64,000 bases of DNA from Cyanidioschyzon merolae (Eukaryota), in assembly GCA_000091205.1 (NCBI GenBank), contig AP006492.2; one strand, 5' to 3'. The position numbers and the translations under genes are program-made. Positions 12,063-53,694 of this stretch are shown here, one piece after another. The notes below the pieces were generated by a model that saw only the letters and a list, made by a program, of their open reading frames with translations, did no database searches and was not told the origin of the DNA. The stretch's first letter is position 1. Every line of letters begins with the position of its first letter.

Positions 12063-12081
12063 AAACAAACAAACAAACAAA
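12063..12081. repeat. (AAAC)n microsatellite
   Basis: aaacaaacaaacaaacaaa. Confidence 0.8.
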
Positions 12082-12245
12082 GCGAAGAAGGATGCACAGA
12101 TACAGACGTCCCAGAATGCACTGACCTGGGTTTGATCTCCTTGCGCGCACCCTGGTCACGACGCCTGGCGGTATGCCGCTGGTGCTTCAGCTGCTTTCTG
12201 GTGTCGCAGCGGACCGACGGATGCGTCGGTGACACCACCCGAACG

Positions 12246-13088: not shown

Positions 13089-13984
13089 GCGAGATGCCGC
13101 TCACGTGCAGTACATTATTGTTCTGGGTGGCTGGCTCTGAGCATCTGTACGGTAGGCTTGCGGGATATTGTCGAAAGAAAGAGGGCGATCACTGTTTCGA
13201 TGCGTACGGTTTCGGCGCTGCGGCTTCGTTTGGGATCCACGCCAACGCACCCGCAGCCGATGCCCAGGTGACTCTTGCGAATGAGCGACCCGCGAGTTTC
13301 CGCAGAGTGATGATGCGTTCTGCGAACTGCGAACGATGTTGTGCAAGCGAGCCACTCTGGAGGTTTTATCTTGTATTGGTTGTTGTCGCGGTCTGGAGCA
13401 TGTGGCCAGTACCAGATCGTCACGCCTTGTCTGCATCGAGATGCGCATTCCAGGCATACGACGCGGTATGAAACCGCGCGGAGCCGTTGCAATGCATCGC
13501 AGATGGGATGTTTTGTATATTCTGGTAACGACGCTGAGGGATGCTGCTGTTGCTGCTGCGTTTGCATGTGAGGGCTACTAACGCCGTCGCCTCCGTGCCC
13601 TGGCAGGAGTCCCGGCAGCGCACCTTCATGTATTTGTGCCCAGATACTTAGGCAAGATGACCAGAGCAGATTGGATCAAAAGCTCACTCGGATAAAATGC
13701 CAAGTGCATTGCTCATGGGACAGCCCGCACTTGGCGTATGCCGGCGCATACGCTTCGCGCTCGTGCAGCACCGAGGTTGGCACATGCTCTCTTTCGAATA
13801 ATCCTTGCGATCGGTCGCGCTGTTGACGTTGCGAAGTTCTCTATGAACAGCATCCTTGGGGTTCACTCGAGCGTTCAAACAGCTTCCTTGGCCCGAAATG
13901 CTCGCCATCTGGACTCAAGCACCAGGATAAAGATGAAAGTTCCATTGCTCCGAAGTGCTCAGCGGCTCGAAACCAGAATCTGTA

Positions 13985-20335: not shown

Positions 20336-21697
20336 ATGGAGCCGCAGACGGTTCAGGAGCTCGAGCTCTCCTACGGTGCTCGGGAGTTAATCCACAAGAC
20401 AGCGGAATTTGTCCGTAAGCACGCGGGTACGGATGTGGAGCAGCGGCTGCTGGCCCGCGAACCGAGCAAGTTTGCGTTTTTACAAGAGCAGCACCCCTGG
20501 CACAACGAATACCTCCGCGCCCTACTGGGCGAGGCTGCTGACGTTGTGACACCGCCCCAAGCAGACGCTTGTGCTGCGAAAGCGACTGGAAATGGCGATG
20601 TCATCACTACAGTCACATCGGACGCAATCTCGTTTGAGCAATACCTTCCGTACAAAGATTTTTTCCCGGCGTTGCGATCAGCAAACCTGGTGCTCGCTCT
20701 GGGCGGTACTCTTGAGGAGTGGCGAACGCGTCGACGCGAGCTGCTGTGTGCCCCTACAGCGTCAGAGCTGCAAGTGATGCGGCTGGTTGCGTCACACATG
20801 GCCCTGCGAGTGTTTTGCTCGGCCTTGCCGCCGCAACAGCGCGAGACCGAGGCTCCGGCGTCTGCGAGCCCTATCGCTGACGACTTGCGATGCTGCAGCG
20901 ATATCTGTTCGGGGGAGAAGCGTGGACTCAGCTCGGAACTACAGCGGGAGCTTCTCAGTTTGCTGGAGAAACAACCACGTTTGCTCGCGTTCCTACTGCC
21001 CCAACATGTTTATCATCCAATATTCCACCGGTTCCTCGAAGCGAGCGCAGATCTGCTGCACACGGCAGTCAATGGCGCTGCATTTGAATCGATGCTTGGA
21101 AAGCTTGAATCTTTCAAGGACGACGAATGGGCTGTGTTCGCTGCGGCACGACAATGGGTACCACGTGACCGGTATGCAGCGCCAGATTCTGGTGAGCAAC
21201 TCACGTTTCATGAGCGTGTATCACGGGCTTTCGCACTTGGAGCAGTGAGGCGGCCTAGAAAGCTAGGAACCCTAGCGATAAGTGAGCGTATTCCCGAGCT
21301 TCAGCGCTTGTCGCAAGGCGTACCGCCGGTTGCAGCCAGGACGTCATACCCGAAATCGATACCAGCGCCAGGGAAGCGAAAGCCCAATATGGCCTCTGGA
21401 CCTGCTGCTACTGGACAGCCGCCGTTCAAACGGAGCATGGTGACGCCACGAACATCGACAACGAGCCGCGTGGATGCTCGCGCATCCGCTACGTCGGTTC
21501 CCCAGCGACCACACCATAGAGCGGAGACACAGGCCATTTCTGATCCCCGTGCCGCACCGTTGAGGCCGGAGCACCCGCGGACTCAGCAAACTCGTGGGTG
21601 GCAAAACCAGTCGCCACGCGAAATGCAACGAGGTGGTAGTGCACAGCGGCGCCCGATGAACCCGTCGCCACCGTTTAACGGTCATCACACACGATAG
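20336..21697 (+). CDS. SURP (SWAP/Surp) domain protein, probable splicing factor
   Basis: N-terminal SURP-module signature 'ELIHKTAEFVRKHAGTDVEQRLLAREPSKFAFLQEQHPWHNEYLRALL'. Pro/Arg-rich low-complexity C-terminus. Confidence 0.5.
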   Translation: MEPQTVQELELSYGARELIHKTAEFVRKHAGTDVEQRLLAREPSKFAFLQEQHPWHNEYLRALLGEAADVVTPPQADACAAKATGNGDVITTVTSDAISFEQYLPYKDFFPALRSANLVLALGGTLEEWRTRRRELLCAPTASELQVMRLVASHMALRVFCSALPPQQRETEAPASASPIADDLRCCSDICSGEKRGLSSELQRELLSLLEKQPRLLAFLLPQHVYHPIFHRFLEASADLLHTAVNGAAFESMLGKLESFKDDEWAVFAAARQWVPRDRYAAPDSGEQLTFHERVSRAFALGAVRRPRKLGTLAISERIPELQRLSQGVPPVAARTSYPKSIPAPGKRKPNMASGPAATGQPPFKRSMVTPRTSTTSRVDARASATSVPQRPHHRAETQAISDPRAAPLRPEHPRTQQTRGWQNQSPREMQRGGSAQRRPMNPSPPFNGHHTR

Positions 21698-26404: not shown

Positions 26405-28995
26405 CTCCCAAAAGAAAAACGTTGTGACCGCCAGTGGTGTACAGTAGTGGCGAGTGCTCCGCCTTAGACTAGACGTCGCCAACTGACGAGCTGATGCCTT
26501 CCAGTCTTTTTCGACCGGCCACCTACAACGGCTTCCAATTTTTTCTCATATAATCCCACTTTGAGTGGTTGTCCCTTAAAATTCTCTCTTGACAGCTGTG
26601 GAGGTTTTTTCTCCATCACCGCGCATCTCCTGATATTGATGGCGGTGTTAAAATCTCGGTTCACAAACTCCATACGTTTCTCGCCATTGTTGGTACTCAC
26701 CAATGCAAGCAATCCTCGAACTTTCGCCATCCTTTCCATCTGCTCCTCCGTCAGCGGTCCGTATTTTCTTATCCTCAGGGCTCCTCATGCACATTCCTAC
26801 CTCCACTCTCTGAAGTAGACACCCCAGCTCATGGTGTGTATACGACGTTCGAAACTCACCTACAGGTATTGTTACAAAGCGCCTTGCGCACTCCTTATAC
26901 GCACTCGTCGTTGGAGCTGGCGTAGTTCCTTTTTGGGTCTTCCAGCGCCCTGCTCCGTATGCTACTACGAGCCTCTGACTTTTTTTATCCTCCTTCAAGG
27001 CGCTCATCTGATTGAAAACGTTCGCAAATGCCCGCTGCCTCTCTCCGTATAGACTCATACGCAGACGAGCCCACCGGGGCATGGTATACTCCTTCCACAG
27101 TGCGTCCCAATGGGCAACGCGAACTTCCATGAATTTCCGAAAAGCAGTAAAGTCCGCTCCTCAGCTCGTGATCTCCCTCATAGCTTCGAGGTGATCCTTC
27201 ATTCCTGCATTCCACCTCTCATTTGTCTTCCTTGCATTCATTATATCCGATTCTAGACAGTATCTCGCTCTCGAGAACCTCAAAAGACGCATGTCTTTCT
27301 GAGGTAAGTTGCCGTCAGTACCATCATCCGCACGCTTGGGAGCAGCGATGGTTATGATATTCGTATTCCCAGGGTCCGCGCCGACGACAAAGTCGTTATC
27401 TTGCACCTCCTGCGTCGCAAGATCCGCCTCCTTCTTTTCTGCATTCTTCGCCGCGCCAACGAAAGTCGTTATCCTGCACCTCCTGTGCCGCAGGATCCGC
27501 CTCCTTCTCACATTCATGGTTCGTCACGGGCGCAGCCGAGGGCGGGACTGGACGATCTCTCTTCAACCGCCGATAGTGTATACACAAGGCTACTCCATCG
27601 GTATCGATCATCCCAGTGAGTACCTTTTGTTTGCTCACCCTCAGACGTTTGAAATCGAAGATATTCTTCCAGAACGTCTCCCGGTTTTCACCGTAGAATT
27701 CCTCCCTGCTAACATCGAACTCCGGACTGATCTCCTTCATGATGCCATGAAGGACTGCGGAGTCGATACTCACAAAATGTGACTTGATGGTGCACATCGG
27801 AACGATGTAGAAGCGCTTACCCATCAGGAAAGCCTTCCGTCTGTCCCAGTCTTCAGTTTTCCCCACTCAGCTTCATTTCTGCCTTGCGTTCGAGTTCTCG
27901 GTCCAGAAACACGAAATAACATAGGATGAGGCGATAGTATCTTCCCTTATCTTTTTCAACGCTGATATCTTGTCTGTTGGATTCGGCAGCCCCATGACTG
28001 CACGGTGCTCTTGTATATCCGCACGGATGACGGAGACCTTATTCGTGCTCTGGTTTGACGCCTTCTTGTCGACAAATTCGACGTCATCTTCACGCTTGCG
28101 ATCGTTCGTGATGCCATTGATAATCGCTGATATTCCTTTGGGACAGATGCCCGGGTAGAGTGCAAACAAGGCGCGTATCATGTAACGTTCGAGGTTCACT
28201 GTCAAATTGTTCTTCAGGTTCGCGGTATACTTTATCGCCCCGTATATGTAAATACCCCGGTCACCGCTTTATCGATTACTCTCGAGGCGGAATTCCGCCA
28301 AGTTTTCGTGGAGGGCATGCACTGGCTCATTTTCCCCCGCGCTTACTCTGTACCAAGCATCAGCTGACGAATAAACGTCGCATCGAAAACGCCGTCCGGG
28401 AACCTCGACCGTTTCCATGTGCGTCACTTCGCGATACATCTCCCTCGCCAAATGCATCAGTCCTGACGAGGCCTTGACAATACTCTTGGAGTACGAGTCG
28501 ATACGTTTTTCGATAGCGTTTCGCTAGTGTTCCCTGTAAGGATCCTTGATATGTTTAAGAAGAAAGGTTTTCACCAGCATCTCGTTGTACGGTTGTAGTT
28601 CTTGCGGCCATCGACTTGGGATATCCCCTTTTTGCGTTTTCTTCTTATGCTGTTCTTCTGAACTCGGTACTGTTTTTTTCTTTTCTGGCAGCCAGCGACA
28701 CTGGGGCGTCAGGATCGCCGACTTGCTTTTTCATAACATCCTTTTTTTGTTTTTTTTTGAAAAGAACGCTCCATCAACGCCTCTGATATAGACCGCTAAA
28801 TATCACTTGGATAAACTAAATTGAGCGTTGAAACATAATTGACCTGAAAAGTGTACTCTGTTATGACTTTAACGAATATACAACTTGTAATTGAGAGCAA
28901 CACGCTCAAGATCGCGATCGCGTTTCCCTTCACCAACGACATGCGCGTGGTGTCTCATACCTGCCAGATATGGAGGTGCGCGTATCGACCGCTAT
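26372..28995 (-). mobile_element. Fanzor/TnpB-like element, copy C (near-identical to copy D)
   Basis: ORF fragments 26464..26739, 26648..27130, 27161..27517, 27396..27866, 27873..28205 and 28269..28457 match the Fanzor protein. 5' leader ends ~28995 where LINE sequence begins. Confidence 0.5.
26464..28583 (-). pseudogene. Fanzor (TnpB-like) ORF, copy C (multiple frameshifts and stops)
   Basis: '[18 protein letters not shown]' (RuvC-I), 'EFRTSYTHHELGC', 'RMEFVNRDFNTAINI' (RuvC-III). Has TGG (W) where A/B have the TGA stop. Confidence 0.55.
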
Positions 28996-30380
28996 AATCC
29001 CTTGGCACACGGACTCGAACTCCAAATACCCTCGACAGAAGGTATAGCAGCAGGCTGCCGGGTACGTATATGGGCCAAAGGGCCCGCCATGCGCACCTCT
29101 TTGAGTCGGATTTTCATGCAGACCCCTACGCACCTCAAGAACACTTGGACGAAATTGACGCAGATTGGGCTGAAGCGCCTATTAGACGAACATACGCTCC
29201 CCAATCGTTCCCCAGGAATGTACAAGGCTCCCGCCGCCTCAAGCGAACGGTCCAAACAACAATATGGGAACGTAGACACGGAACCAGTCGCGCCAGTAAC
29301 GCCGGCTTGATCCTATACCGGAGCTACAACCTAGCATACACATGCAAGTACTGGTGGGAGGCGCTGGAATTCCCGGGACTTGCTCGAGGTACCCAGTGGC
29401 TCGCCAAAATCCGCGTTGGTGGCTTCTGGCTAGCGGCACCGGCTCTAAGCCGTATAGGGACACTGGAATCGCACTGGGAGTCACACTGTCCCTGCTATCG
29501 AGACGATAACCCCGAGACGCTGACATATTTAGGCTTACAGTGCCCGCGCTGGAAGCAGGAGCGCAGCGAGCTCCTTGAAGGACAGCAGCAGCTGGGCATC
29601 ACCATGATATCCGAGGGCCGGACACTCACTTTGAGAGCAGCACTGGCAACTGATGGTCCGCTAACAGATCCTCAGCGCTCATTAGTGGCGAACAAACTCA
29701 CATGCTACCTTCCAAGCGGAAGGTCCAGCGGATCGGATGCGCACACGGGCCCAGTGCTCTCTGCGCCTACCTTCTGTATGGGTGTCAAACACAAACCCGC
29801 ATTGCCAACCGACGACAACGCATTCCATGCATGATCACGAAAGAGAGAGGCGGCTCCCACGATATATCCTAACAGTCAAGTTTCTCCAGCGTGTCGAGCA
29901 GCGAAGACAAGCCTGCATCCGCAGACTGTCCGAGCACACACTGACGACGAGACCCGATTCTACGTCGGGTGAAGCGCACCTTGAGCCGACGCCCTCTGGG
30001 GTATAGAAAAGCCGTTCTGTCTCCATGATGCATCTGTACCAAAGGTAAAGACGCTATTGCGGACAATTAGGACAGGTTCTGGGCACACGATAGGACGTAT
30101 GAGATGACCAGAATATCCGAGATGAAGGATAGGTAATTTGACGTGGAGGTACGGGGGTTGATGGATACCCCACCGCGCACTGTAAAAAAATAACGCAAAA
30201 AGTAAGAAAAGAAAAATGCGCACAATCGGAGAACGCTGGCCCAAGTAAACGCGTTGTCCGTGAAAAAGGACTCATCGATGCCGGCAGGCGTGCAGGCAAT
30301 CAGGCAGGCGGCAATCTCAGCCACAGAATGCGACGGCGCGAGCGCACGTCCTTCCCGGGGCAATAAGCGGCGCCTTTCGT
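28975..30380 (+). mobile_element. LINE-like retrotransposon, copy 3 (5'-truncated: end of RT ORF, C-terminal Cys/His ORF, ~300-nt 3' UTR)
   Basis: 28891..29834 ORFs match copy 2 39551..40400 in inverse orientation. 30067..30363 matches 39076..39318 (3' UTR). Confidence 0.6.
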
Positions 30381-36551: not shown

Positions 36552-39110
36552 GCTCCTCCGCGGCACCCCACGCAACGCGCCAACAACGCCGTTCTGAACT
36601 CGAACGACGTCGAACGTGTACTGTATTGGCGACCAGTGCTCTAGACAAGAAGTCTCCAACTGATGTGCAGAGACCTCTCAGTTTTCTTGGACCGGCCACC
36701 TACTACGGCTTCCAACCTTTTCTCATATAATTCCACTTTGAGCGGTTGTCCCTTAAAATTCTCTCTTGTCAGCTGTGGAGGTTTTTTCTCCATCACCGCG
36801 CATCTCCTGATATTGATGGCGGTGTTAAAATCTCGGTTCACAAACTCCATACGTTTCTCGCCATTGTTGGTACTCACCAATGCAAGCAATCCTCGAACTT
36901 TCGCCATCCTTTCCATCTGCTCCTCCGTCAGCGGTCCGTATTTTTTTATCCTCAGGGCTCCTCATGCACATTCCTACCTCCACTCTCTGAAGTAGACACC
37001 CCAGCTCATGGTGTGTATACGACGTTCGAAACTCACCTACAGGTATTGTTACAAAGCGCCTTGCGCACTCCTTATACGCACTCGTCGTTGGAGCTGGCGT
37101 AGTTCCTTTTTGGGTCTTCCAGCGCCCTGCTCCGTATGCTACTACGAGCCTCTGACTTTTTTTATCCTCCTTCAAGGCGCTCATCTGATTGAAAACGTTC
37201 GCAAATGCCCGCTGCCTCTCTCCGTATAGACTCATACGCAGACGAGCCCACCGGGGCATGGTATACTCCTTCCACAGTGCGTCCCAATGGGCAACGCGAA
37301 CTTCCATGAATTTCCGAAAAGCAGTAAAGTCCGCTCCTCAGCTCGTGATCTCCCTCATAGCTTCGAGGTGATCCTTCATTCCTGCATTCCACCTCTCATT
37401 TGTCTTCCTTGCATTCATTATATCCGATTCTAGACAGTATCTCGCTCTCGAGAACCTCAAAAGACGCATGTCTTTCTGAGGTAAGTTGCCGTCAGTACCA
37501 TCATCCGCACGCTTGGGAGCAGCGATGGTTATGATATTCGTATTCCCAGGGACCGCGCCGACGACAAAGTCGTTATCTTGCACTTTCGGGGTCACAGGAC
37601 CCGCCTCCTTCTTTTCTGCATTCTTCGCCGCGCCAACGAAAGTCGTTATCCTGCACCTCCTGTGCCGCAGGATCCGCCTCCTTCTCACATTCATGGTTCG
37701 TCACGGGCGCAGCCGAGGGCGGGACTGGACGATCTCTCTTCAACCGCCGATAGTGTATACACAAGGCTACTCCATCGGTATCGATCATCCCAGTGAGTAC
37801 CTTTTGTTTGCTCACCCTCAGACGTTTGAAATCGAAGATATTCTTCCAGAACGTCTCCCGGTTTTCACCGTAGAATTCCTCCCTGCTAACATCGAACTCC
37901 GGACTGATCTCCTTCATGATGCCATGAAGGACTGCGGAGTCGATACTCACAAAATGTGACTTGATGGTGCACATCGGAACGATGTAGAAGCGCTTACCCA
38001 TCAGGAAAGCCTTCCGTCTGTCCCAGTCTTCAGTTTTCCCCACTCAGCTTCATTTCTGCCTTGCGTTCGAGTTCTCGGTCCAGAAACACGAAATAACATA
38101 GGATGAGGCGATAGTATCTTCCCTTATCTTTTTCAACGCTGATATCTTGTCTGTTGGATTCGGCAGCCCCATGACTGCACGGTGCTCTTGTATATCCGCA
38201 CGGATGACGGAGACCTTATTCGTGCTCTGGTTTGACGCCTTCTTGTCGACAAATTCGACGTCATCTTCACGCTTGCGATCGTTCGTGATGCCATTGATAA
38301 TCGCTGATATTCCTTTGGGACAGATGCCCGGGTAGAGTGCAAACAAGGCGCGTATCATGTAACGTTCGAGGTTCACTGTCAAATTGTTCTTCAGGTTCGC
38401 GGTATACTTTATCGCCCCGTATATGTAAATACCCCGGTCACCGCTTTATCGATTACTCTCGAGGCGGAATTCCGCCAAGTTTTCGTGGAGGGCATGCACT
38501 GGCTCATTTTCCCCCGCGCTTACTCTGTACCAAGCATCAGCTGACGAATAAACGTCGCATCGAAAACGCCGTCCGGGAACCTCGACCGTTTCCATGTGCG
38601 TCACTTCGCGATACATCTCCCTCGCCAAATGCATCAGTCCTGACGAGGCCTTGACAATACTCTTGGAGTACGAGTCGATACGTTTTTCGATAGCGTTTCG
38701 CTAGTGTTCCCTGTAAGGATCCTTGATATGTTTAAGAAGAAAGGTTTTCACCAGCATCTCGTTGTACGGTTGTAGTTCTTGCGGCCATCGACTTGGAATA
38801 TCCCCTTTTTGCGTTTTCTTCTTATGCTGTTCTTCTGAACTCGGTACTGTTTTTTTTCTTTTCTGGCAGCCAGCGACACTGGGGCGTCAGGATCGCCGAC
38901 TTGCTTTTTCATAACTTCCTTTTTAAGTTTTTATAAATCAGCCCTCCGTGAACGCTTCTGTTATATACTGAGAAAAACAATCGAATATTTTCACTTGAGG
39001 GTTGAAACACAATCGAACTGAAAACTATACATGCCTATGAAGTTAACAAAAATACAACTTTGACATTAGAGCTACATGCTAGATATCAAGATCACGTTTC
39101 CCTTTAACGG
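36552..39110 (-). mobile_element. Fanzor/TnpB-like element, copy D (5' leader truncated at ~39110 by LINE copy 2)
   Basis: 36641..38700 is essentially identical to 26464..28520 (copy C). 3' end is more diverged than A/B/C. Confidence 0.5.
36641..38760 (-). pseudogene. Fanzor (TnpB-like) ORF, copy D (frameshifted)
   Basis: ORFs 36641..36916, 36825..37307, 37338..37694, 37573..38043 and 38050..38382 match copy C. Confidence 0.55.
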
Positions 39111-40321: not shown

Positions 40322-42274
40322 GCCCGGCAGCCTGCTGCTATCGCTTCTATTGAGAGTATTTGGAGTTCAAGTCCGAGTGCCAGCGCGGTGGTTGCCCTGC
40401 TCTGCATTGAGCATCCAACAACAACGAGTCTCATTGCCCCGTTGGCGGCTGTCTGCGGACGCGAGGCATTTGTGTGCTTCATGCCGCACCACTCAGCACC
40501 CCAGGTCGCAGGCTGGGTGATACACATCCTTAGTGCCCTCGTACGAATTGCTATGCGGATAGAGGGGTCGGATGGGAATGAGCGTGCGATCGCTGTACCT
40601 CTATGCATCTTGGCGATCATCTCGTCGACGTGTGCCTTTTCGTCGAGCGTCGGCGTGAGACCGACCCCCAGGTAGCGATATTTTTCCACGATCGGGATTT
40701 CCGGATTCTGCAACCGCCACGAGCGATTGCGAATGCTCTGCGAGTCTCCATGGATGACCATGACGCCGCACTTCGATGCTCCTATGCTCATCTCCCAGCG
40801 ATCGGCCCAGTCGCTGACTTGTTGCATGCTAGCCGCAAGCGTTTCAGGGGCGGGTGCCAACAGCACGACATCGTCCGCAACTAGACGGCCTGCGAGGCGG
40901 TTCCTATGTGAGGGCTCCTCATCGGGCATCTCCACAGTCTATCCACGGCACCTCAAGCCCGTATTGTCTGCAGTTGTTCAGCAGATCGTTGATGAAGATG
41001 TTGAAAAGGAGCGGGGATGCGCGCTCGCCCTGCCGCAGTCCACGGCGGATTCTTCTGGAAGGGGTTCTTGAGCTGTCGCCCAGTCGGATGCGCATCCATG
41101 AGTCTGCATAGAGCGCACGGAAGAACGCTAAGCACTTTCCGGAGACTCCGGCGCGTTCCATCTTCAGAAATGGAGCCTCGTGCGGGACCGTGTCAAAGGC
41201 CTTTTGAAAGTCAATGAAGCATACGTAAGTTGGTTGTTGGCCGCTAATGGAGCGACGTTGCACCACTTCAGTTAGGGTCAGGACATGGCTCATGCACTCC
41301 TCGTGGCTCCGGAATCCAGCCTGTTCTGGGGCGAAGAACTTGCGTTCCTGGAGGCCTCTCTGGATCCGGTTCGTGGGAATGGCGCAAAGTAGCTTCATGA
41401 TTGACGGGATGAGGCGCATAGAGCGGTAGTTGTTCATGTCTGTGTGGGAGTCCTTTTTGAGGATCGGTACGACCTCAGCAGTCCTCCATACATCCGGGAT
41501 GTACGCCTCTTCGAACATGCGTTGGATGAGCTCCACAAGGCGTTTGCCTAAGCTTGTGTCAGATTCATCTGGTATTGATGGTGTCCCTGTTGTCCCGTCT
41601 TTTGGGGTCACCAGTTTCATCCACTCCGCAGGGATACCGTCGATGCCAGGTGTTTTGCGGTTGCATGACCTTAAGAGGGTCCGGACAGATTCAGGCCAGA
41701 AGATTGGGTCGTTCCATTCCGGTACCGATTCGAGGCGCGGTAGTTCTGCGGCATACTGGTGCCAATAGATTGGGTCTTGGCAGTGCCCAGTTGCTTCTTC
41801 ATGCAGCTCTGTGCCGTGGTCCGTCCAGGCCTCATTCACTGAGGCACGCTCCGTCCTCAGCGCTTCCTCATAAACGATTGGTGTGAGCCCCAGGCACTTT
41901 TTTGGTGGGTCCAGTCTCGGTCGAATGTAGCGCCAGGTCTCATCTTCGTTGGTGCTCTCTAGCATAGATTTCGCCAGGGAGGCGATTTCGCGGTTTCGAT
42001 CCTCTCGTTTGTCTTCTCTGGAAAGTTTCTTCTTTCTTTTGATAGCTTCTTCATGTTGCGCCTGTAGCGCCGTTAGGACTGCCTTCGCTTCCTTGTCTCC
42101 GGCGTTGACGCGTATGGCGGTGTGGTTGACGATCTGATAGAGTCGGTGGCGCTCGTCAATCCGGGTATTGGTACGTCGTTTCAGGCACTGAGGTTTGCAA
42201 CTGTTGCGTTCTGGTGCAAGCAGTCCCAGCTCTCCGGCAATCTTCTGATTCCCATCTACAAACTCGCGTGCCAA
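40075..42274 (-). CDS. LINE ORF encoding reverse transcriptase (two overlapping ORF segments, frame change near 40919..40935); no AP-endonuclease domain recognisable
   Basis: 'FIDFQKAFDTVPHE', 'LRQGERASPLLFNIF', 'LVADDVVLLAP' (FADD-box equivalent); only ~120 aa N-terminal to the RT. Confidence 0.6.
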
Positions 42275-44086
42275 TTGGTCTAAAGATTTGTATGCACGGC
42301 TTTTCGGATCTTCAGCGCTGTGAGTAGGTGACTTGGTTTGGCGACGGCTTTCTTGAGTTCCTGCTGGGGTGCTCTTTCGGGGACGACTTGTGATGGGCTC
42401 GCTGGAGCCCCCGCCTGTGGGCTCGTTCGGGAGTTCTTCTTTCTATTCTTCTGTTTTTCTCTTGCTGGTTTGCTTCTTCATCGGGCTCTTTCCTGAGCTA
42501 CATTCTCTGGTTACTTTGCATCTAGGTGGATCATGAGGTTTCTGTGTCTCCTTCTCCGTGTCTGGTTGGGTCTCTTTTCCTTTTGTACAGTCCTCGACTT
42601 GTATCAGTTCTTCATTACTGTACTGGTAATTCGATATCTCGTAGTTCAATACCGAGGCGATCCCACAAATATTCCATGATGCGAAACCTATCGAGTCGTA
42701 GCGCATAAGGGAATAGGAGTAACGCTGCGGTACTCGAGAGATACGTTGTCGATTGAGATGCACCCTCCACGGAGTGTGTGAGAGCACATGCCACCAGCGC
42801 CTCCTACATTCCAGTCGTTCACTGAGTGTCTGCCGCAGCGCTAGCGTAGAATCAGATGTACGCTAGTCAAGGTCGATTCAAATGCGACCTTTATATTGCC
42901 CGACGCTTTAACCTCCCCTCAACAATTGGGAACAGTCTGCAAACCACCCTTTCAGCGGCTACGTATCCGCTCCCCAAACACATAGGCGGGCAAGCCGCTT
43001 ATTCCAGCTTCGACCGCAAACATACTGCCAGCCGTCTTCCAAAGTATCCGCCGAAATTGTTCCCAAAGTTGAGGTAGGTACCCAAGGTAGGAGATAAAAC
43101 TGAGCCCGAGTCCGAGGATCGATCCAAGATTTGCGCCCGAACCTGCAGCGTTGATTCGGGAGGGGCGGATGACTAATCAGGATTTTCGTCAACATTTTCT
43201 GGTGCTACTGCCGCCGCCCCTCCGTTCGTTGCGCGGTCAAGGTCCCTGGCGTGGGCTTCCTTCGCCGTCGCCCAAGCACCCCGCGTTAACCCACTTTCAG
43301 AGCTTCTCCGGAAAAACTAGACCTTTAAGGCGGGCGTGGTGTGTGGGTCTTTAAGATAGTTGTTCTTTAATAAATAGTTTGCGACTAGTTTGTTTTGTTG
43401 TTTTTTTTTTGTTTTTTTCCGCACGACGATTTCTCTTTTTTGGTTACGAAGAACGTTCCATACACCACCGCCGTGCGATCATGGCGGCGTTTCATTGGTT
43501 GCGGATTGAACCGCCTCCGCGTCGTTGCACCATTCGATTCGAAACGTAGGGCATACGCGACGCCTGTTCCCGTCGGATGGGGACGTGTCGCCGGGCCGGT
43601 GCGGGTACCGCCCCGGGGATGTCGGCACCCAGACCCCGCGAACGGGGACGCAGGAGCAGTTCCCTCGAGCGGCCCCGCGAAATCAACAGACGACCATCGA
43701 TGCGTAATACGTGGCGTAAATCAGGTATGCAACCGATCGAAAGGATACCAAGTTACGACGGCGACGGTTTATTCACTGACGCCTTCTCCAGACCTTGGCG
43801 TTTTCCTGCTTCAATCCAGTTTAGACAGGGCGTTAGAGTTTTCACGGAGGGAACCTCGTCTATTCGGACCAGTCTGCTCTCTTTTTGGAGGGACAGGTCA
43901 AGATCCAGCGTTTTCCTGGCGTGTTGTGTTTGGGAGTGCGGAGCGCTTTCTGCTTGTGCAGTGGACGAAAGCGGCTTTTGGTTGTCTCGTCACTTTGGAC
44001 GCTACTGGAGAATAGAAGTCACTCGCTGTCTTCTACAGCTAGGAAACGCACTTATGTGATTTTATATTTCACTTAATAGGCAAATA

Positions 44087-47000
44087 ATGCGACCGAATAT
44101 GCAACGATTATGGAATATTTTTGCTCTCGGGCTTGTGCTGTTCCTTCTTGCGAGACTTTCGCAGACGCTTTTAATAACAACCGTGAGGGACGGTGAAGCT
44201 GAGGCTATAAAACGTTCCGCTGCTCGCCATGAGCTATGGGATGATTGTTCTCCGTTCAGGCGCATAGAGGGTTCTTGGGCGCGGAGATGGCGAAGTGTCG
44301 TTTTCCATAGGGAAACTTGCGCTCGCTTCCGTGTGACGGACAGAGAACTGGTGAGCGTCGACGGGGAATCTGACAGCTGCGGCATTTCAGGAGTATGCGT
44401 TAGCCCATCCACCGAACTCGAACGATGGTCTCAACTACCGGGGAAGAGAGTAGCGGGACACGGGGAAGTGTTGCGTTTCTCGAACGTTCCAACGCACTGG
44501 AAAAGAATGGACTGTGTCCACGGCTCGCTGAAAGGCAACAGCATTCCCGTTAACGTAGAAAACGGGAAATATTGTATTTTACCCGATGGACAGGGGTTCA
44601 ACGTGTTATCGCCTGCCGCGGAAATCGAGCGGAGTGAAAGTCCTGCGGAAACAGCCGCGGACGAACTGGGATCTCATGAAGGTACTTATTCATGCCAGCC
44701 TGCCAGGCAGGTTGTGGAACCATGCTCTCCCGAAAGAAGGAGACTGGTAAAGGAAGCTTCGGGAGTAAGCAAGACTCTAGGCAGCTGCTTTTCGACCTGG
44801 CGGTCCTGGCGGTCCTGGTGGTCCTGGCAGTTCAGGTACCCCTGGTAGTTCGGATGGTGCCGGGGGTCCCGGAGGCGGTGGCCCCGGAGGCGGTGGCCCC
44901 GGAGGCGGTGGCCCTGGTGGCGGTGGCCCTGGTGGCGGTGGCCCTGGTGGCGGTGGCCCTGGTGGCGGTGGCCCTGGTGGCGGAGGTCCCGCTTCAGCTT
45001 CCGCTTCAGCTTCCGCTTCAGCTTCCGCTTCAGCAAGTGCATCGTACTCGCTGAGCTACTACGACTCGAGGAGCGCCTCAGCCTCAGCCTCAGCCTCAGC
45101 CTCAGCCTCAGCCTCCGCGTCGGCGTCGGCTAGCGCATCGTACTCGCTGAGCTACTATGACTCGAAGAGCGCTTCAGCCTCGGCGTCAGAGTCAGCCTCA
45201 GGCTCAGCCTCGGCAAGTGCCTCTTACTCGCTGAGCTACTATGACTCGAAGAGCGCATCAGTGTCGGCATCAGCCTCGGCGTCAGCCTCTGCGTCATCTT
45301 CGGCAAGTGCGTCGTACTCGCTGAGCTTTTATGATTCAAAGAGTGCTTCAGCCTCAGCATCATCTTCGGCAAGTGCGTCGTACTCGCTGAGCTACTATGA
45401 CTCGAAGAGCGCTTCAGCCTCGGCGTCAGCCTCAGCATCATCTTCAGCGAGTGCGTCGTACTCGCTGAGCTACTATGACTCAAAGAGCGCTTCGGCCTCA
45501 GCATCATATTCGGCAAGTGCCTCGTATTCGCTGAGCTACTATGACTCGAAGAGCGCTTCGGCCTCAGCATCATCTTCGGCGTCGTCATCAGCCTCGGCGT
45601 CCGCAAGTGCATCCTACTCGCTGAGCTACTATGACTCGAAGAGCGCATCAGTGTCGGCATCAGCCTCCGCGTCTGCTTCAGCATCATATTCGGCAAGTGC
45701 CTTGTACTCGCTGAGCTTTTATGATTCGAAGAGCGCTTCGGCGTCTGCGTCAGCTTCGGCGTCGTCATCAGCCTCGGCGTCCGCAAGTGCATCGTACTCG
45801 CTGAGCTACTATGACTCGAAGAGCGCATCAGTGTCGGCGTCAGCCTCCGCGTCTGCTTCAGCATCATATTCGGCAAGTGCCTCGTACTCGCTGAGCTTTT
45901 ATGATTCGAAGAGCGCTTCGGCGTCTGCGTCAGCTTCGGCAAGTGCGTCGTACTCGCTGAGCTACTATGACTCGAAGAGCGCTTCGGCCTCAGCATCATC
46001 TTCGGCAAGTGCGTCGTACTCGCTGAGCTACTATGACTCGAAGAGCGCTTCAGCCTCGGCGTCAGCCTCAGCATCATCTTCAGCGAGTGCGTCATACTCG
46101 CTGAGCTACTATGACTCAAAGAGCGCTTCAGCCTCGGCGTCAGCCTCAGCATCATCTTCGGCAAGTGCGTCGTACTCGCTGAGCTACTATGACTCGAAGA
46201 GCGCTTCAGTGTCGGCGTCTGCTTCGGCGTCGTCATCAGCCTCGGCGTCCGCAAGTGCATCCTACTCGCTGAGCTACTATGACTCGAAGAGCGCATCAGT
46301 GTCGGCGTCAGCCTCCGCGTCTGCTTCAGCATCATCTTCGGCAAGTGCCTCGTACTCGCTGAGCTTTTATGATTCGAAGAGCGCTTCAGTGTCGGCGTCT
46401 GCTTCGGCGTCGTCGTCAGCCTCGGCGTCAGCAAGTGCATCGTATTCGCTGAGCTACTATGACTCTAAGAGTGCTTCAGCCTCGGCGTCAGCCTCAGCAT
46501 CGTCTTCAGCAAGTGCGTCGTACTCGCTGAGCTACTATGACTCGAAGAGCGCTTCAGCCTCGGCGTCAGCCTCTGCATCATATTCGGCAAGTGCCTCTTA
46601 CTCGCTGAGCTACTATGACTCGAAGAGCGCTTCAGGCTCGGCGTCAGCCTCAGCATCATCTTCGGCGAGTGCGTCGTACTCGCTGAGCTACTATGACTCG
46701 AAGAGCGCTTCAGGCTCGGCGTCAGCCTCAGCATCATCTTCAGCGAGTGCGTCGTACTCGCTGAGCTACTATGACTCAAAGAGCGCTTCGGCGTCAGCAT
46801 CATCTTCGGCAAGTGCGTCGTATTCGCTGAGCTACTATGACTCGAAGAGCGCTTCGGCGTCTGCGTCAGCTTCGGCGTCGTCATCAGCCTCGGCGTCCGC
46901 AAGTGCATCGTACTCGCTGAGCTACTATGACTCAAAGAGCGCATCAGTGTCGGCGTCAGCCTCCGCGTCTGCTTCAGCATCATATTCGGCAAGTGCCTCG

Positions 47001-50000
47001 TACTCGCTGAGCTTTTATGATTCGAAGAGCGCTTCGGCGTCTGCGTCAGCTTCGGCGAGTGCGTCGTACTCGCTGAGCTACTATGACTCGAAGAGCTCTT
47101 CAGCCTCGGCGTCATCTTCGGCGAGTGCGTCGTACTCGCTGAGCTACTATGACTCGAAGAGCGCTTCAGCCTCGGCGTCAGCCTCAGCATCATCTTCAGC
47201 GAGTGCGTCATACTCGCTGAGCTACTATGACTCAAAGAGCGCTTCGGCCTCAGCATCATATTCGGCAAGTGCCTCGTATTCGCTGAGCTACTATGACTCG
47301 AAGAGCGCTTCGGCCTCGGCGTCAGCCTCTGCATCATCTTCAGCGAGTGCGTCGTACTCGCTGAGCTACTATGACTCAAAGAGCGCTTCGGCCTCAGCAT
47401 CATATTCGGCAAGTGCCTCGTATTCGCTGAGCTACTATGACTCGAAGAGCGCTTCAGTGTCGGCGTCTGCTTCGGCGTCGTCGTCAGCCTCGGCGTCAGC
47501 AAGTGCATCGTACTCGCTGAGCTACTATGACTCGAAGAGCGCATCAGTGTCGGCGTCAGCCTCCGCGTCTGCTTCAGCATCATCTTCGGCAAGTGCCTCG
47601 TACTCGCTGAGCTTTTATGATTCGAAGAGCGCTTCAGTGTCGGCGTCCGCTTCGGCGTCGTCGTCAGCCTCGGCGTCAGCTAGTGCATCGTATTCGCTGA
47701 GCTACTATGACTCGAAGAGCGCTTCAGCCTCGGCGTCAGCCTCCGCGTCTGTTTCAGCATCATCTTCAGCAAGTGCCTCTTACTCGCTGAGCTTTTATGA
47801 TTCGAAGAGCGCTTCAGTGTCGGCGTCATCTTCAGCAAGTGCCTCGTACTCGCTGAGCTACTATGACTCGAAGAGCGCTTCGGCGTCAGCATCATCTTCG
47901 GCAAGTGCGTCGTATTCGCTGAGCTACTATGACTCGGTGAGCGCTTCGGCCTCTGCATCATATTCGGCAAGTGCCTCTTACTCGCTGAGCTACTATGACT
48001 CGAAGAGCGCGTCAGCCTCGGCGTCAGCATCATCTTCAGCCTCAGCAAGTGCATCGTACTCGCTAAGCTACTATGATTCGAAGAGTGCTTCAGCCTCAGC
48101 ATCATCTTCGGCAAGTGCATCGTACTCGCTGAGCTACTATGTCTCGAAGAGCGCATCAGTGTCGGCGTCAGCCTCCGCGTCTGCTTCAGCCTCGGCGTCA
48201 GCAAGTGCGTCGTACTCGCTGAGCTTTTATGATTCGAAGAGCGCTTCAGTGTCGGCGTCAGCTTCGGCAAGTGCGTCGTATTCGCTGAGCTACTATGACT
48301 CGAAGAGCGCTTCGGCCTCAGCATCATCTTCGGCGTCGTCATCAGCCTCGGCGTCCGCAAGTGCATCGTACTCGCTGAGCTACTATGACTCGAAGAGCGC
48401 ATCAGTGTCGGCGTCAGCCTCCGCGTCTGCTTCAGCATCATATTCGGCAAGTGCCTTGTACTCGCTGAGCTTTTATGATTCGAAGAGCGCTTCGGCGTCT
48501 GCGTCAGCTTCGGCGTCGTCATCAGCCTCGGCGTCCGCAAGTGCATCGTACTCGCTGAGCTACTATGACTCGAAGAGCGCATCAGTGTCGGCGTCAGCCT
48601 CCGCGTCTGCTTCAGCATCATCTTCAGCAAGTGCCTCGTACTCGCTGAGCTTTTATGATTCGAAGAGCGCTTCGGCGTCTGCGTCAGCTTCGGCGTCGTC
48701 ATCATCCTCGGCGTCCGCAAGTGCATCGTACTCGCTGAGCTACTATGACTCGAAGAGCGCATCAGTGTCGGCATCAGCCTCCGCGTCTGCTTCAGCCTCG
48801 GCGTCAGCAAGTGCCTCTTACTCGCTGAGCTTTTATGATTCGAAGAGCGCTTCAGTGTCGGCGTCATCTTCAGCAAGTGCGTCGTACTCGCTGAGCTACT
48901 ATGACTCGAAGAGCGCTTCGGCTTCAGCATCATCTTCGGCAAGTGCGTCGTACTCGCTGAGCTACTATGACTCGAAGAGCGCGTCAGCCTCTGCGTCTGC
49001 CTCGGTGGCAGCATCATCTTCAGCCTCAGCAAGTGCCTCGTATTCGCTGAGCTACTATGACTCGAAGAGCGCTTCGGCCTCTGCGTCTGCCTCGGTGACA
49101 GCGTCTGCCTCAGGCTCAGCGTCGGCAAGTGCGTCGTATTCGCTGAGCTACTATGACTCGAAGAGCGCATCGGCGTCAGCATCATCTTCGGCAAGTGCGT
49201 CGTACTCGCTGAGCTACTATGACTCGCAGAGCGCGTCAGCCTCTGCGTCTGCCTCGGTGGCAGCATCATCTTCAGCCTCAGCAAGTGCCTCGTATTCGCT
49301 GAGCTACTATGACTCGAAGAGCGCTTCGGCCTCTGCGTCTGCCTCGGTGTCAGCGTCTGCCTCAGGCTCAGCGTCGGCAAGTGCGTCGTATTCGCTGAGC
49401 TACTATGACTCGAAGAGCGCATCGGCGTCAGCATCATCTTCGGCAAGTGCGTCGTACTCGCTGAGCTACTATGACTCGAAGAGCGCTTCGGCCTCAGCAT
49501 CATCTTCAGCAAGTGCGTCGTACTCGCTGAGCTACTATGACTCGAAGAGCGCTTCGGCTTCAGCTTCATCTTCAGCAAGTGCGTCGTACTCGCTGAGCTA
49601 CTATGACTCGAAGAGCGCGTCAGCCTCTGCGTCTGCCTCGGTGGCAGCATCATCTTCAGCCTCAGCAAGTGCCTCGTATTCGCTGAGCTACTATGACTCG
49701 AAGAGCGCTTCGGCCTCTGCGTCTGCCTCGGTGTCAGCGTCTGCCTCAGGCTCAGCGTCGGCAAGTGCGTCGTATTCGCTGAGCTACTATGACTCGAAGA
49801 GCGCATCGGCGTCAGCATCATCTTCGGCAAGTGCGTCGTATTCGCTGAGCTACTATGACTCGCAGAGCGCGTCAGCCTCTGCGTCTGCCTCGGTGGCAGC
49901 ATCATCTTCAGCCTCAGCAAGTGCCTCGTATTCGCTGAGCTACTATGACTCGAAGAGCGCTTCGGCCTCTGCGTCTGCCTCGGTGTCAGCGTCTGCCTCA

Positions 50001-50789
50001 GGCTCAGCGTCGGCAAGTGCGTCGTACTCGCTGAGCTACTATGACTCGAAGAGCGCTTCGGCCTCTTCGTCTGCCTCGGTCACATCTAGCCAATATGCAA
50101 GTGCGTCTGTGAGCGCGTCTGTTTCTTTCTCCAGTTCTTTGAGTGCATCTGCTTCTTCTAGTGTGTCTGTTTCGAGTACTACAACTGGCAATCCTGTACG
50201 TTTGATACTGAAAGAGGATTTTTTTACGGGTGTTGCCTCTGAGTCTGCGTTGGCTGACGCGCTTCGCCATGCCCTGGAGGTACTCTTCGGTATTACTCCA
50301 CTGAGTTTTATTGTGAATAGTATGCGTGAGATCACTAAGTCAAGTATTCTTGAGTCGAACTTCAGGTTGGACGCAGACGAGTTTGTGAGTTGCATTAGCA
50401 GTGCGCAATCTCTGATACTTTATAATACGACGAGCGTCTGGGATGCCGATGGTTCAACGGCTTCGCAGATCGCATCGGGACTTCGCGAAGCGTTGAAAAA
50501 TGGCACACTCAGCGCCGAACTATCCAAGTTTTACGGCTCTCCAGTCTGTGTAGCGCCGAATGGAACAGTAACTATAGCCGGATTGGTCACTTCGAGCTCG
50601 AGTCCGCTCCCTGTCTGGGTGATCGTTATCATAGTGGTGCTTGGAACTCTATTACTGTCTAGTTGCTGTGCGCTTCTTGTATTCGCGGTGCGTCGTCGGA
50701 AACGACGACATGCCGCGGAGAGCGAAGCGCAAGAGGATCAGACAGACGCTGAAACGGCCGACACCGGAATAGATGACTTCGGTTTGTAG
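44087..50789 (+). CDS. giant Ser/Ala-rich tandem-repeat surface protein (signal peptide, GGGGP stretch, ~65 x ~26-aa repeats, C-terminal domain, TM anchor, short cytoplasmic tail); needs a frame change near 44747..44780
   Basis: Signal peptide '[27 protein letters not shown]'. Frame changes to the repeat frame, which is open from 44781 to 50789. C-terminal TM '[28 protein letters not shown]' followed by 'RRRKRRH'. Confidence 0.55.
44747..44780 (+). other. putative 34-nt GT-AG mini-intron (gtaaag...ctctag) joining the signal-peptide exon to the repeat exon; the alternative is a frameshift
   Basis: Exon 1 frame ends with codon CTG at 44744..44746. Removing 34 nt (34 = 3n+1) joins it in-frame to GCA at 44781, the first codon after the frame-0 TAG at 44778..44780. 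Confidence 0.3.
44860..44990 (+). repeat. 15-nt tandem repeat (ggtggcccYggWggc) encoding GGGGP x ~8
   Basis: Direct reading. Confidence 0.7.
44991..50100 (+). repeat. tandem array of ~66-102-nt (modal ~78 nt) repeats encoding '(SA)n [13 protein letters not shown]' units, ~65 copies
   Basis: Direct reading. Also generates long antisense and out-of-frame pseudo-ORFs. Confidence 0.9.
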
Positions 50790-52560
50790 TATTTATTTAC
50801 CTATTCGTAAATTGTACATTGACTGACGTAATCTCAACGTACTCTGCCTGCGAGCCAGAGCTCAATATAACATAAGAATTATCTCCAGTTGAGAGCATTC
50901 CCTTCAGAATCCAAGATTCTTTGTGCGCGCGGGTTTGGACGACGTCGATTGCCACGGTCACAGAGTACTTGACCCGTGTCCGACAACAATGAGACTTTGA
51001 ATTGCTCGTTCTGTTGTCGCTTTTCGATCCGTTTTCCAATTTCTACCTATACGGTTTACGCAACGCATGCACCACCATATTTGATTCCAGATTCGTTGGT
51101 AGAAAGAGGTTCCTCCGGGGTCGGTTTGGTGCGTCACTTTCGAATCTTTCCCACCGAAATCCGTTGAGTCTGCAGAATCAAGATTATCGCGGATCTTCGG
51201 ACGTCGGTCTATAAAGCTAACCTCACAATTATCCAATTCCTCAACACAAGGGTACATAATTCTGGTCTCCTTACATGTTGTCTGCAAATCAGACGCATTC
51301 TTCAAGTTTTTGATTTTTATGCAGAAAGAACTCCTTATTGCAAAAATCCGTGCAGGTTGGTTGACAAAGAATAGGACTTCCATGTCGTATATTAGCGCAA
51401 TATTCACCAGCTCATTCCGAAAGCTTGTTTAACCTTTTATGATACAAAACAGATCTCGTTCGAAGAACGATACCTTTTCGCCGAGGGGCAACATGCGAAA
51501 CGGCATTCCACAGAAGCATCATTATTCTCGCGGGATTGGCTTCCAGAGGCTCTCGTCTTTTCATTCTGCTCGGCGAAGAATACTGGAATCGGACTCGAGT
51601 ACTCACAGCGACGGCCACGTGTGGGGCGTTTATTGCCGATTTGCACGAAAGGAATATGGGCAGATTGAAATTCCTGTACATTTTCTCAAACTTGAATTGC
51701 CTTCCGGTACTTGTTTGATCACAGAAAAGACCCCGATCGAAGGCTTCTATCCGAAGAAAATAAAAAAACAGAGGAAAGTCCTGCTAGATAACCAAAGCTC
51801 TTCTTCGTGTGTCAACCGCGATTGAGCACGTCATGCGGGGCCTTGAAGAACAGATTCATGGAAGTGAATGCACGTTTCTATCCCTGAAGTCGTCCTCGTT
51901 ACGAGCTAGTGCTCGATGGTGATAGCGCTGTCGCTGAAATTGCCGTGCGGGTTGGTGCTCGTTTCGTAGGCTTCGTATATTTGTGGATCGCCGAGTTCCG
52001 GCGAAACGTGAAGAATAAAGATGACCGAAGCATAAATCGTAAATATTATATATACTTCTTGTTCATCAAACAAGCCACAGCACGCTCATGTGCACCAGCT
52101 ACGCCTTGGGATGTATCCCGTCGGAGTACCAAAGATACTCTGCAGCATCTCGGAAAAAGGTGCACTCCGCTCCCACCAAGGGGCGCCATTCCCTGACAGA
52201 ACGCCTTCAAGCACAGTTTCATTGGGTGGGCGCCCTAGCTTGCGATACGTTGCGCTCAGCGCTACTCTGGGACAGAGATAACGGACAGGTACCCTGGATT
52301 TTACTTGCTCCGACTCCATATGCAGGAGCCTATGGAAATCGAAAGACTCGCGTACTCAAAAACGACAATGAAGGGGAAGAAAGCGAAGCGGTTGCAGAAC
52401 GAGCCTCAAAGCGTGGTATTGATAGAGGTGAAAAGCGGATCGAAGTTTAGCATGCTCGCTAGAACCAGATGAACTTGTTTTCTAGCATAGATGGGGCCAT
52501 GCTAGAATGATTAGAATTCGGACGTCAAGTCACCGTCCGTTTGAGTGAGCCGCTCGGCAG

Positions 52561-53694
52561 ATGTATGATACCCCCCGGGATCAACACATGCGAGCCACGG
52601 GCGCTCTGCACGTGACGCTGCGACGCTTGGGTTGCATGGCCCTCGGGCGTTCTCCTCTCGGCCTCCTGGGCTGGTGCGATGTGTGCGCGCTGGACGAGCC
52701 TGTCCATTCGAAACGCGCCTCGAGCTCACGAGTGTCGACCCAATGCCCAGCCTATCGCCACGCTCACCGCTTGAAGCGCGTTCTGACGCTTCCGGGCGCG
52801 TTCGTGCACCAGCTGCTGGAGACAGCGGCAGCCGCGGTGACGACACAAAACCCGGCTGCGGAGCCTGCGCTAACGCAGACACGCAGCACCCTCGAGCCGT
52901 TCTGGCACCTGCTGAAACGCAACCTGCGCGCCGCAGCATGGAATGACGAGCAGCTCCTGGCGTTTATCGACGACGTGCTGGTGATCTACACATGCCAAGC
53001 AGCGATGGCACGTCATTGGCGCACGCAGCTGGCAGAGGTCATCGGCATCGCAGCGGATCGCGTGTCCACTGATGCGGCGATTGCGTGCTGGTGCCGATGC
53101 GTGCGCGACGACGTGCCGCGTTGCCGGCTCTGTGGGCACGATCACTTGACACGATGCTGGCTGCCGGCGCTCGTTGCCTTGATTTGGGTGATTCCACCAC
53201 GAGGGCGCTCGCGTTGGCTTCAAAAGTGTCTATGTGCGCGTCTCCTGGAGAGCTGGGTATCGCGTCGTACTGAATTGCAGGTTGAGGCACAGGAGTCTGC
53301 AGTTGCCCGCATCGATGATGGTGCGTCCGAGGCGGATGCAGGGCACGCGTCGGTTATGCTGCTTGCACGCGTCGCTGGCGCGCTGTGCCTGCCACGCTAT
53401 GAGGCCGGCCGCACGTCGGGACGCGCTTCCGATGCGAGTGATCTAGAGTGGATGGTGGATGCGATGCACTTGCTCCTGCTGGATTGGAATGTCGTTCCCG
53501 ACATTGCCGCGGCGATACATTCGATGCGTCGGCATGTCTTGCAACAGCTTCGCACGGTGCTTGCTGCTTGGACGCAGGTTGCGCGTACGGTGCCGGAGCC
53601 GCGGGGTTACCGGCTGCGTACGCAGCTGCACCTGCTTCGTCGGCAGCTCTGCGATGAGCCCGTGGATGTGTTTGGGAGCGGTACGGTTCCGTGA
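52561..53694 (+). CDS. hypothetical protein (no recognisable domain; strand assignment uncertain)
   Basis: 377-aa ORF starting at an ATG in a GC-rich region. Confidence 0.25.
   Translation: MYDTPRDQHMRATGALHVTLRRLGCMALGRSPLGLLGWCDVCALDEPVHSKRASSSRVSTQCPAYRHAHRLKRVLTLPGAFVHQLLETAAAAVTTQNPAAEPALTQTRSTLEPFWHLLKRNLRAAAWNDEQLLAFIDDVLVIYTCQAAMARHWRTQLAEVIGIAADRVSTDAAIACWCRCVRDDVPRCRLCGHDHLTRCWLPALVALIWVIPPRGRSRWLQKCLCARLLESWVSRRTELQVEAQESAVARIDDGASEADAGHASVMLLARVAGALCLPRYEAGRTSGRASDASDLEWMVDAMHLLLLDWNVVPDIAAAIHSMRRHVLQQLRTVLAAWTQVARTVPEPRGYRLRTQLHLLRRQLCDEPVDVFGSGTVP

Follow-up and report, generated by a model that had tools for sequence, protein, structure and literature searches.

The CMJ309C locus and its two reading frames

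The DNA analyzed here (the window) is a stretch of 64,000 nucleotides from Cyanidioschyzon merolae. The ORF at 44087-44848 on the + strand is an exact sequence match to CMJ309C, a gene on chromosome 10 that encodes a hypothetical protein of 253 aa (BAM80399.1/XP_005535006.1). A second exact match in the window identifies the ORF at 20336-21697 as CMJ300C of C. merolae 10D, and other ORFs of the window encode eukaryotic domains (Surp, RNase PH and FAA hydrolase).

CMJ309C starts with a hydrophobic N-terminus that resembles a signal peptide, and its frame ends with a TAG at 44846-44848. A second long frame, which encodes a repetitive sequence, is closed upstream by a TAG at 44778-44780 and is then open from 44781 up to the stop at 50787-50789. 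This repeat frame comprises 2,002 codons with 0 stops, whereas the other two frames contain 80 and 78 stops over the same stretch. The frames of the signal peptide and the repeats overlap by 68 nt (44781-44848) and are offset by +1. The positions of the two stops and the extent of the overlap were part of the original prediction and hold on re-reading. It was stated moreover that the removal of 34 nt, a length of 3n+1, would yield a single ORF of ~2200 codons. This segment, located at 44747-44780 (gtaaaggaagcttcgggagtaagcaagactctag), has GT at its start and AG at its end, and in its absence we indeed computed one ORF of 2,222 codons, joined after ...RRRL.

The repeat frame is free of ATG up to its last ~150 codons and is therefore not a separate gene. 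Two long ORFs in such an arrangement are well past chance. They are clearly the halves of one gene, because the repeat frame lacks an early ATG and the C-terminal domain that it encodes is unmatched by the annotated C. merolae proteins. The two halves are:

44087..44848, + strand: CMJ309C, consisting of 232 native codons (signal peptide, Cys-containing N-domain and start of the linker) and 21 out-of-frame codons (exact match, translation)
44781..50789, + strand: orphaned downstream frame, 2,002 codons long before its stop and without an entry in the 10D proteome (frame scan)

Architecture of the encoded protein

Taken over both frames, the order of the elements is signal peptide, Cys-containing N-domain, Gly/Pro spacer, Ser/Ala/Tyr array, juxtamembrane domain, TM helix and short tail. 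The elements encoded by the downstream half are the following:

44796..44983, + strand: Gly/Pro-rich spacer of GGP and GGGGP units, with one 9-nt unit more than the related loci L001 and L003 described below (translation, alignment)
44991..50177, + strand: Ser/Ala-rich tandem array with 63 motifs of the YSLS(Y/F)YDS type, 22-32 aa apart (translation)
50178..50609, + strand: non-repetitive C-terminal juxtamembrane domain of ~145 aa, with 96% DNA identity to L003 (alignment)
50610..50690, + strand: predicted single transmembrane helix of 27 residues (hydrophobic stretch, AF2 pLDDT)
50691..50789, + strand: short cytoplasmic tail, basic and then acidic, with the stop codon (translation)

The array extends over 5.2 kb and is composed of 49% Ser, 26% Ala and 11% Tyr. 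The number of repeat units varies about threefold, as there are 63 in the window versus 20 in the intact gene of L003. A scan of the N- and C-terminal domains against Pfam gave no match above the cut-off, the sub-threshold matches being driven by the TM helix, and neither SEA nor another recognised mucin-associated domain was detected in that scan. Single-sequence AlphaFold2 models of the two domains had a mean pLDDT of 41 and 50, respectively, which is too poor for a fold search. The TM helix was the sole confident part, with a block-mean pLDDT of 81-92.

In the HMMER scan with the N-domain, performed on 1.84 billion representatives, the domain retrieved no sequence but its own, apart from a spurious match, based on repeats, to a bacterial metalloprotease-like protein. 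The search with the C-terminal domain returned no C. merolae protein, its single match being a JGI fragment of 171 aa. Thus, two large protein searches yielded no homologues of either domain beyond Cyanidioschyzon, and, as judged from these searches, the family is an orphan restricted to that genus. Values for dN/dS between strains were high, from 0.55 to 1.26, but these were derived from small counts and within this range a fast-evolving surface protein is inseparable from relaxed constraint; we therefore discarded the ratio as a discriminator.

Intact relatives and the 80-nt deletion

Relatives of the gene were collected by scanning metagenome contigs with the N-domain, which resulted in five loci (L001-L005). 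The most complete reading was obtained for L003, part of a 54-kb JGI contig, in which an uninterrupted ORF of 1,115 aa at 10001-13348 contains all domains in one frame. Signal peptide, Ser-rich repeats, the one TM and the short tail thus belong to a single polypeptide in L003, whereas they are split over two frames in 10D. The correspondence with the window (49374-53676) amounts to 95.7% identity and continues past the 3' end of the gene into its downstream neighbour. L001, on an independent ENA contig, has the same reading as L003 across the junction, and L002, a paralogous environmental locus that is CMN009C-like, likewise shows no break between the N-domain and the repeats. The 10D allele has its nearest counterparts in L004 and L005, with 99.8% identity in the CDS, but both contigs end ~130 nt before the junction and are therefore uninformative on this point.

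The fate of the 34-nt segment in these relatives is clear. It is 100% identical and in frame in L001 and L003, and it is also in frame in L002, where it carries five substitutions and no indel. Its excision from the intact relatives would produce a frame with many stops. In the DNA alignment, the 34 nt are followed in both L001 and L003 by 80 nt that have no counterpart in the window, where a gap of 80 columns opens directly after ...GACTCTAG. More specifically, when positions 10697-10776 are taken out of L003, the result equals the window over a 120-nt comparison, save for 1 SNP. There is a 2-nt GC microhomology at 44781-44782, so that the breakpoint can be placed only to within 2 nt. The missing segment has no copy elsewhere in the 64-kb window, and the junction sequence of the window is absent from the five relative loci, of which L004 and L005 end before that point. 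The features around the junction can be summarized as follows:

44747..44780, + strand: the 34-nt segment, coding, roughly codons 221-232 (12 residues) of the ancestral gene (in frame in relatives)
44781..44784, + strand: deletion junction, with 80 nt missing (L003 10697-10776, encoding ~VKRLKLGDLHITGGLVSNNRRVYGLT) (alignment with relatives)
44783..44848, + strand: out-of-frame tail of 21 residues followed by the stop, representing the Gly/Pro spacer in the wrong frame (translation, alignment)

The paralogue that 10D itself possesses, CMN009C, supports the direction of the change. CMN009C, encoded on chromosome 14, is 89% identical and was compared as protein sequence; the same stretch is read there as protein. 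The counterpart of the 34 nt is VMKASGATKTLG, the protein contains ...VMKASGATKTLGLKRLKKGDPHITAGLVSNNRRVAS..., and the reading across the region is ...RLVMKASGATKTLGLKRLKKGDPHITAGLVSNNRRVAS.... Since the segment is present in CMN009C and in L002, it is ancestral and its absence from CMJ309C represents a derived deletion.

The arithmetic of the deletion also clarifies why the removal of the 34 nt seems to repair the frame: together, 34 and 80 nt make 114 nt, which is 38 codons. As the length of the deletion is 3n+2, the indel at the break shifts the frame. The premature stop follows 22 codons past the junction, and no other start codon serves the downstream part. The original prediction had offered a frameshift or a genuine pseudogene as alternatives to an intron. 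The kind of lesion was correctly anticipated, but its detail was not, as the frame is changed by an 80-nt deletion immediately 3' of the candidate and not by a 1-nt indel. The 1-nt indel relative to other strains, which had been named as an outcome that would refute the intron, gave way to the 80-nt gap in the alignment with the relatives, and instead of an indel in a repetitive region, the alternative offered there, unique linker sequence is missing.

Two other readings of the junction were tried and rejected. A 1-nt homopolymer error in the TTTT run at 44790-93 would repair the frame too, but L001 and L003 carry the same run and the 80-nt gap explains the shift fully. The missing 80 nt could also be thought of as a lost intron; however, the relatives translate them as part of the open frame, their number is not divisible by 3, and GT...AG ends result from none of the three possible placements of the breakpoint.

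Another way to reconcile the two frames would be a programmed +1 frameshift of the ribosome on an unspliced mRNA, somewhere in the 68 nt that they share. The geometry is what speaks for it, namely the +1 offset, the short overlap and the open downstream frame. However, the gene of the relatives is single-framed and needs no recoding, the offset is fully explained by the 80-nt deletion, and we found no conserved recoding signal, the junction being unique to the window sequence. We consider the probability of such frameshifting to be close to negligible.

Splice signals of the 34-nt candidate

The original prediction favoured a spliceosomal mini-intron of 34 nt. Its attraction is evident: the segment has GT...AG ends and a length of 3n+1, its removal restores one long ORF and with it a protein of 2,222 aa, the frame downstream is unbroken and 10D does transcribe the locus. 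C. merolae is, however, known for its scarcity of introns, and those that it has are highly stereotyped. A total of 27 classical introns has been described for C. merolae, all with ACTAAC(C), and with a median length of 234 nt and a mean of 248 nt (PMC2483917). The 5' splice consensus in Cyanidiales is GUAAGU (PMC8831791). An RNA-seq survey with a minimum intron length of 20 bp reported 39 introns in C. merolae, in which GUAAGU is nearly invariant, ACUAACC virtually invariant and AG invariant (bioRxiv 10.64898/2026.05.17.725761).

The 5' end of the candidate, GTAAAG, has mismatches to GUAAGU at +5 and +6, and the motifs ACTAAC, CTAAC and GTAAGT do not occur anywhere in 44000-45300. The 3' end ...CTCTAG does agree with the AG of the introns; nevertheless this match carries little weight, because 129 other GT...AG pairs (10-400 nt, length 3n+1) restore the same ORF. 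Of these, 13 are not longer than 70 nt, and one of 16 nt has a better donor (GTAAGC). Chance alone would thus be expected to supply a GT...AG pair that restores the frame. In short, of the features that characterize the Cyanidiales introns the candidate has the AG, and it lacks GUAAGU, ACUAAC(C) and a non-coding status in homologues.

The mini-intron thus fails on two counts, for the relatives (L001, L002 and L003) and CMN009C all read the 34 nt in frame as protein, and the near-invariant splice signals of the species are missing. In addition, its length is far from the median of the known introns, and the RNA-seq-guided re-annotation retains the model of 253 aa with 0 TM (PMC13353863). Given the coding role of the 34 nt in the relatives, the mini-intron would moreover have had to arise anew, as a neo-intron making up for the deletion. 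All in all we regard a genuine intron at this position as highly improbable.

Transcription and annotation in 10D

The expression of CMJ309C depends strongly on the type of cell. In three replicates each, the TPM values were 0, 0 and 0 in diploid MS1, 13, 12 and 4.6 in haploid MS1 Ha3, and 80, 77 and 136 in haploid 10D (PMC13353863 Data Set 8). From this pattern it follows that CMJ309C is specific for the haploid phase, in which the cells are wall-less, and that its transcription persists in 10D. Based on the architecture described above, the full-length product would be a mucin-like, glycosylated and fast-evolving surface protein of the haploid cell. The idea that CMJ309C is a diploid cell-wall protein decaying in a wall-less strain was refuted by the same data, as transcripts were found in haploids only and diploids had 0 TPM.

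In the RNA-seq-guided re-annotation CMJ309C is kept as BAM80399.1, with 253 aa, a positive SignalP prediction and 0 TM, and the next gene in the table is CMJ311C (PMC13353863 Data Set 8). As CMJ311C follows directly, the repeat ORF is still unannotated. A full-text literature search for the identifiers CMJ309 and CMJ310 returned a false match only.

An open downstream frame together with transcription would be surprising in a pseudogene of great age. The combination agrees with a recent deletion, although an intact gene with an erroneous reference would account for it too.

A probable frameshift-truncated allele

Taken together, the data are best explained if CMJ309C in 10D is the frameshift-truncated copy, generated by an 80-bp deletion, of a gene that once encoded one long type-I membrane protein, a reading to which we assign a probability of about 0.85. 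The ancestral protein would have consisted of a signal peptide, a Cys-containing N-domain of ~200 aa, a linker of ~38 aa, the Gly/Pro spacer and a long Ser/Ala/Tyr-rich array, and, in its C-terminal part, of a juxtamembrane domain of ~145 aa, a TM helix and a short tail. The lineage of 10D would then have lost the second part of the linker through a deletion of 80 bp (3n+2) between the 2-nt GC microhomologies. Translation that begins at 44087 would accordingly pass into the wrong frame at 44783 and terminate at 44846-48, which yields a secreted fragment of 253 aa, and the 6-kb part encoding the repeats and the TM would be left without translation. The 34 nt at 44747-44780 would simply be the first part of the linker, with GT and AG at its ends by chance.

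The locus is accordingly best read as a truncated allele or a young pseudogene. Several characteristics of a young pseudogene were found, in that the ORF is continuous in relatives, the indel is derived and not 3n in length, and the early stop is not relieved by an alternative start. The signs of decay were not: there are 0 stops in the 2,002 downstream codons and the transcript level in 10D is 77-136 TPM. This missing decay points to a recent event or to a truncated product that is still in use. We infer that 10D cells do carry this deletion and that it is not an artefact of assembly or cloning; it is probably also recent.

The alternative to a real deletion is an error in the reference, in which the 80 bp were lost during cloning, sequencing or assembly and the true 10D gene is intact and encodes roughly 2,250 aa. 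It would fit the stop-free downstream frame (0 in 2,002 codons, versus 80 and 78) and the fact that CMJ309C is well transcribed in 10D. It has also been stated that annotation errors exist in the 2007 gene set of C. merolae (PMC13353863). In addition, CMN009C is annotated as truncated in the 10D reference too, whereas its environmental counterpart L002 is continuous, which could mean that there was systematic trouble at both loci. However, the break in CMN009C sits at a different place than that in CMJ309C, inside the Ser/Ala repeat, and the two truncations are therefore independent events. Moreover, the 80 nt that are missing from CMJ309C come from unique linker sequence whose flanks share only 2 nt of homology, so that a collapse of repeats offers no explanation. 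The 10D genome is a finished Sanger sequence with multiple-clone coverage, and the loss of 80 bp is atypical of a base-calling error. An error in the reference is for these reasons considered unlikely.

A variant of the truncated allele is that 10D has rescued the gene after the deletion, either by excising the 34 nt as a signal-poor neo-intron with its U1-less spliceosome or by +1 recoding, and that it makes the full-length haploid-specific surface protein after all. If true, this would account for the 6 kb of open downstream frame and for the good transcription. We see no more than a slim chance for such a rescue.

With the truncated allele as the preferred reading, the lesion is of an ordinary kind and its value lies mainly in the correction of the annotation of a model genome. 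A ~6 kb ORF (44781-50789) is unannotated in 10D, and the 253-aa CMJ309C would be the stump of a much larger protein. Moreover, 10D, the standard laboratory strain, may lack both full-length members of the family (CMJ309C and CMN009C), a loss that would be notable if the family plays a role in mating or at the surface of haploid cells. For splicing research a false lead is removed, as the locus provides no evidence for ultra-short introns in a genome with ~39 stereotyped introns.

Comparison with known systems

The canonical introns of C. merolae and the other Cyanidiales resemble the candidate in that they have GT and AG ends and lie in protein-coding genes of the same genome. They differ in that they carry GUAAGU and ACUAACC and have a median length of ~234 nt, whereas the candidate has GTAAAG, no branch site and a length of 34 nt, and is translated in the homologues (PMC2483917, PMC8831791, bioRxiv 10.64898/2026.05.17.725761). 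With the lineages known for ultra-short introns the candidate has the size class alone in common. Ciliates and microsporidia belong to these lineages. In the nucleomorph of Bigelowiella natans the ultra-short introns have a mean length of ~19 nt (PMC2483917). Lineages of this type possess hundreds to thousands of such introns and an adapted spliceosome, whereas for C. merolae no intron of that size is on record in the surveys cited here.

The encoded protein can be compared to the mucin-like type-I membrane glycoproteins. Shared features are the signal peptide, a Ser-rich array of variable length (63 versus 20 units), the juxtamembrane domain, a single TM and a short tail. The CMJ309C family differs from them in that it has no SEA or other Pfam domain, in that the repeats are rich in Ser, Ala and Tyr instead of Pro, Thr and Ser, and in that homologues of its N and C domains are confined to Cyanidioschyzon in the searches described above.

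The closest parallel for the lesion itself is found in strain-specific frameshift or nonsense alleles of surface-protein genes, which are truncated alleles or young unitary pseudogenes. The lesions in the adhesin pathway of the laboratory yeast S288C are an example. CMJ309C deviates from these in having a downstream ORF without further decay; for the rest the likeness is clear, as it comprises an out-of-frame deletion, an early stop, intact counterparts in the wild and transcription that persists.

Apparent truncation and possible exchange within the gene family

CMN009C (268 aa, chromosome 14 of 10D) is the sole paralogue of CMJ309C, the ORF interrupted by the 80-nt deletion. As annotated in 10D, the CMN009C protein stops early (...VASATASASLPPRQH*), and exactly at this stop point its environmental counterpart, L002 (3261-4863), runs on in frame into the Ser/Ala repeats. 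On comparison of these sequences, both members of the family thus look truncated in the reference strain 10D, at different positions.

The first ~100 residues of the proteins encoded by the environmental CMJ309C-like loci L001 and L003 show CMN009C-type variants (ALIRSTARH..., SSFRRIKGSWARGWRSVVCHGETCARCRV), and the remainder is CMJ309C-type.

N-terminal stretch with CMN009C-type variants in L001 and L003
window 44087-44400, compared with L001 1338-1650 and L003 10001-10310

This mixed composition suggests that gene conversion or recombination may have occurred between the two paralogues.

Variation of the spacer and the Ser/Ala array

The Gly/Pro (GGP) spacer (window 44796-44983) has one additional 9-nt GGP unit in the window, and the array that follows (window 44991-50177) holds 63 YSLSYYDS units; the relative L003, whose gene is intact, has 20, and its array is ~3 kb shorter than that of 10D. 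Spacer and array are polymorphic in repeat number. Three long antisense ORFs lie within the array.

Antisense ORFs within the Ser/Ala array
45130-46440, minus strand, 436 aa
46465-47592, minus strand, 375 aa
47680-50016, minus strand, 778 aa

A comparable antisense ORF (393 aa) is found in L003. These ORFs look like by-products of the codon composition of the repeats, and gene callers could be misled by them.

Flanking regions and genomic neighbourhood

The 581-nt segment directly 5' of the CMJ309C start codon (window 43385-43965) is present in L002 and L004, is missing from L001 and L003, and has a CGA microhomology common to both its boundaries; the promoter region is polymorphic for this indel. 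The environmental contigs of L004 and L005, with a coding sequence 99.8% identical to that of 10D, end at window positions 44651 and 44645, respectively; in both cases the deletion junction lies ~130 nt further downstream. One possible cause of these contig ends is a branch in the assembly graph due to allelic variation at the deletion site.

Dispersed repeats (81-97% identity) are abundant in the window.

Dispersed repeats in the window
1-2258 and 41141-43399, pair
26465-28930 and 36642-39104, pair
29003-30267 and 40382-39118, inverted pair
4003-5050 and 15756-14709, inverted pair
2338-3919, 28954-27384 and 39116-37561, set

The copy immediately upstream of CMJ309C corresponds to CMJ308C, labelled 'retroelement, alive' in the published table (Data Set 8 of PMC13353863), and the repeat-protein gene therefore resides in a retroelement-rich neighbourhood.
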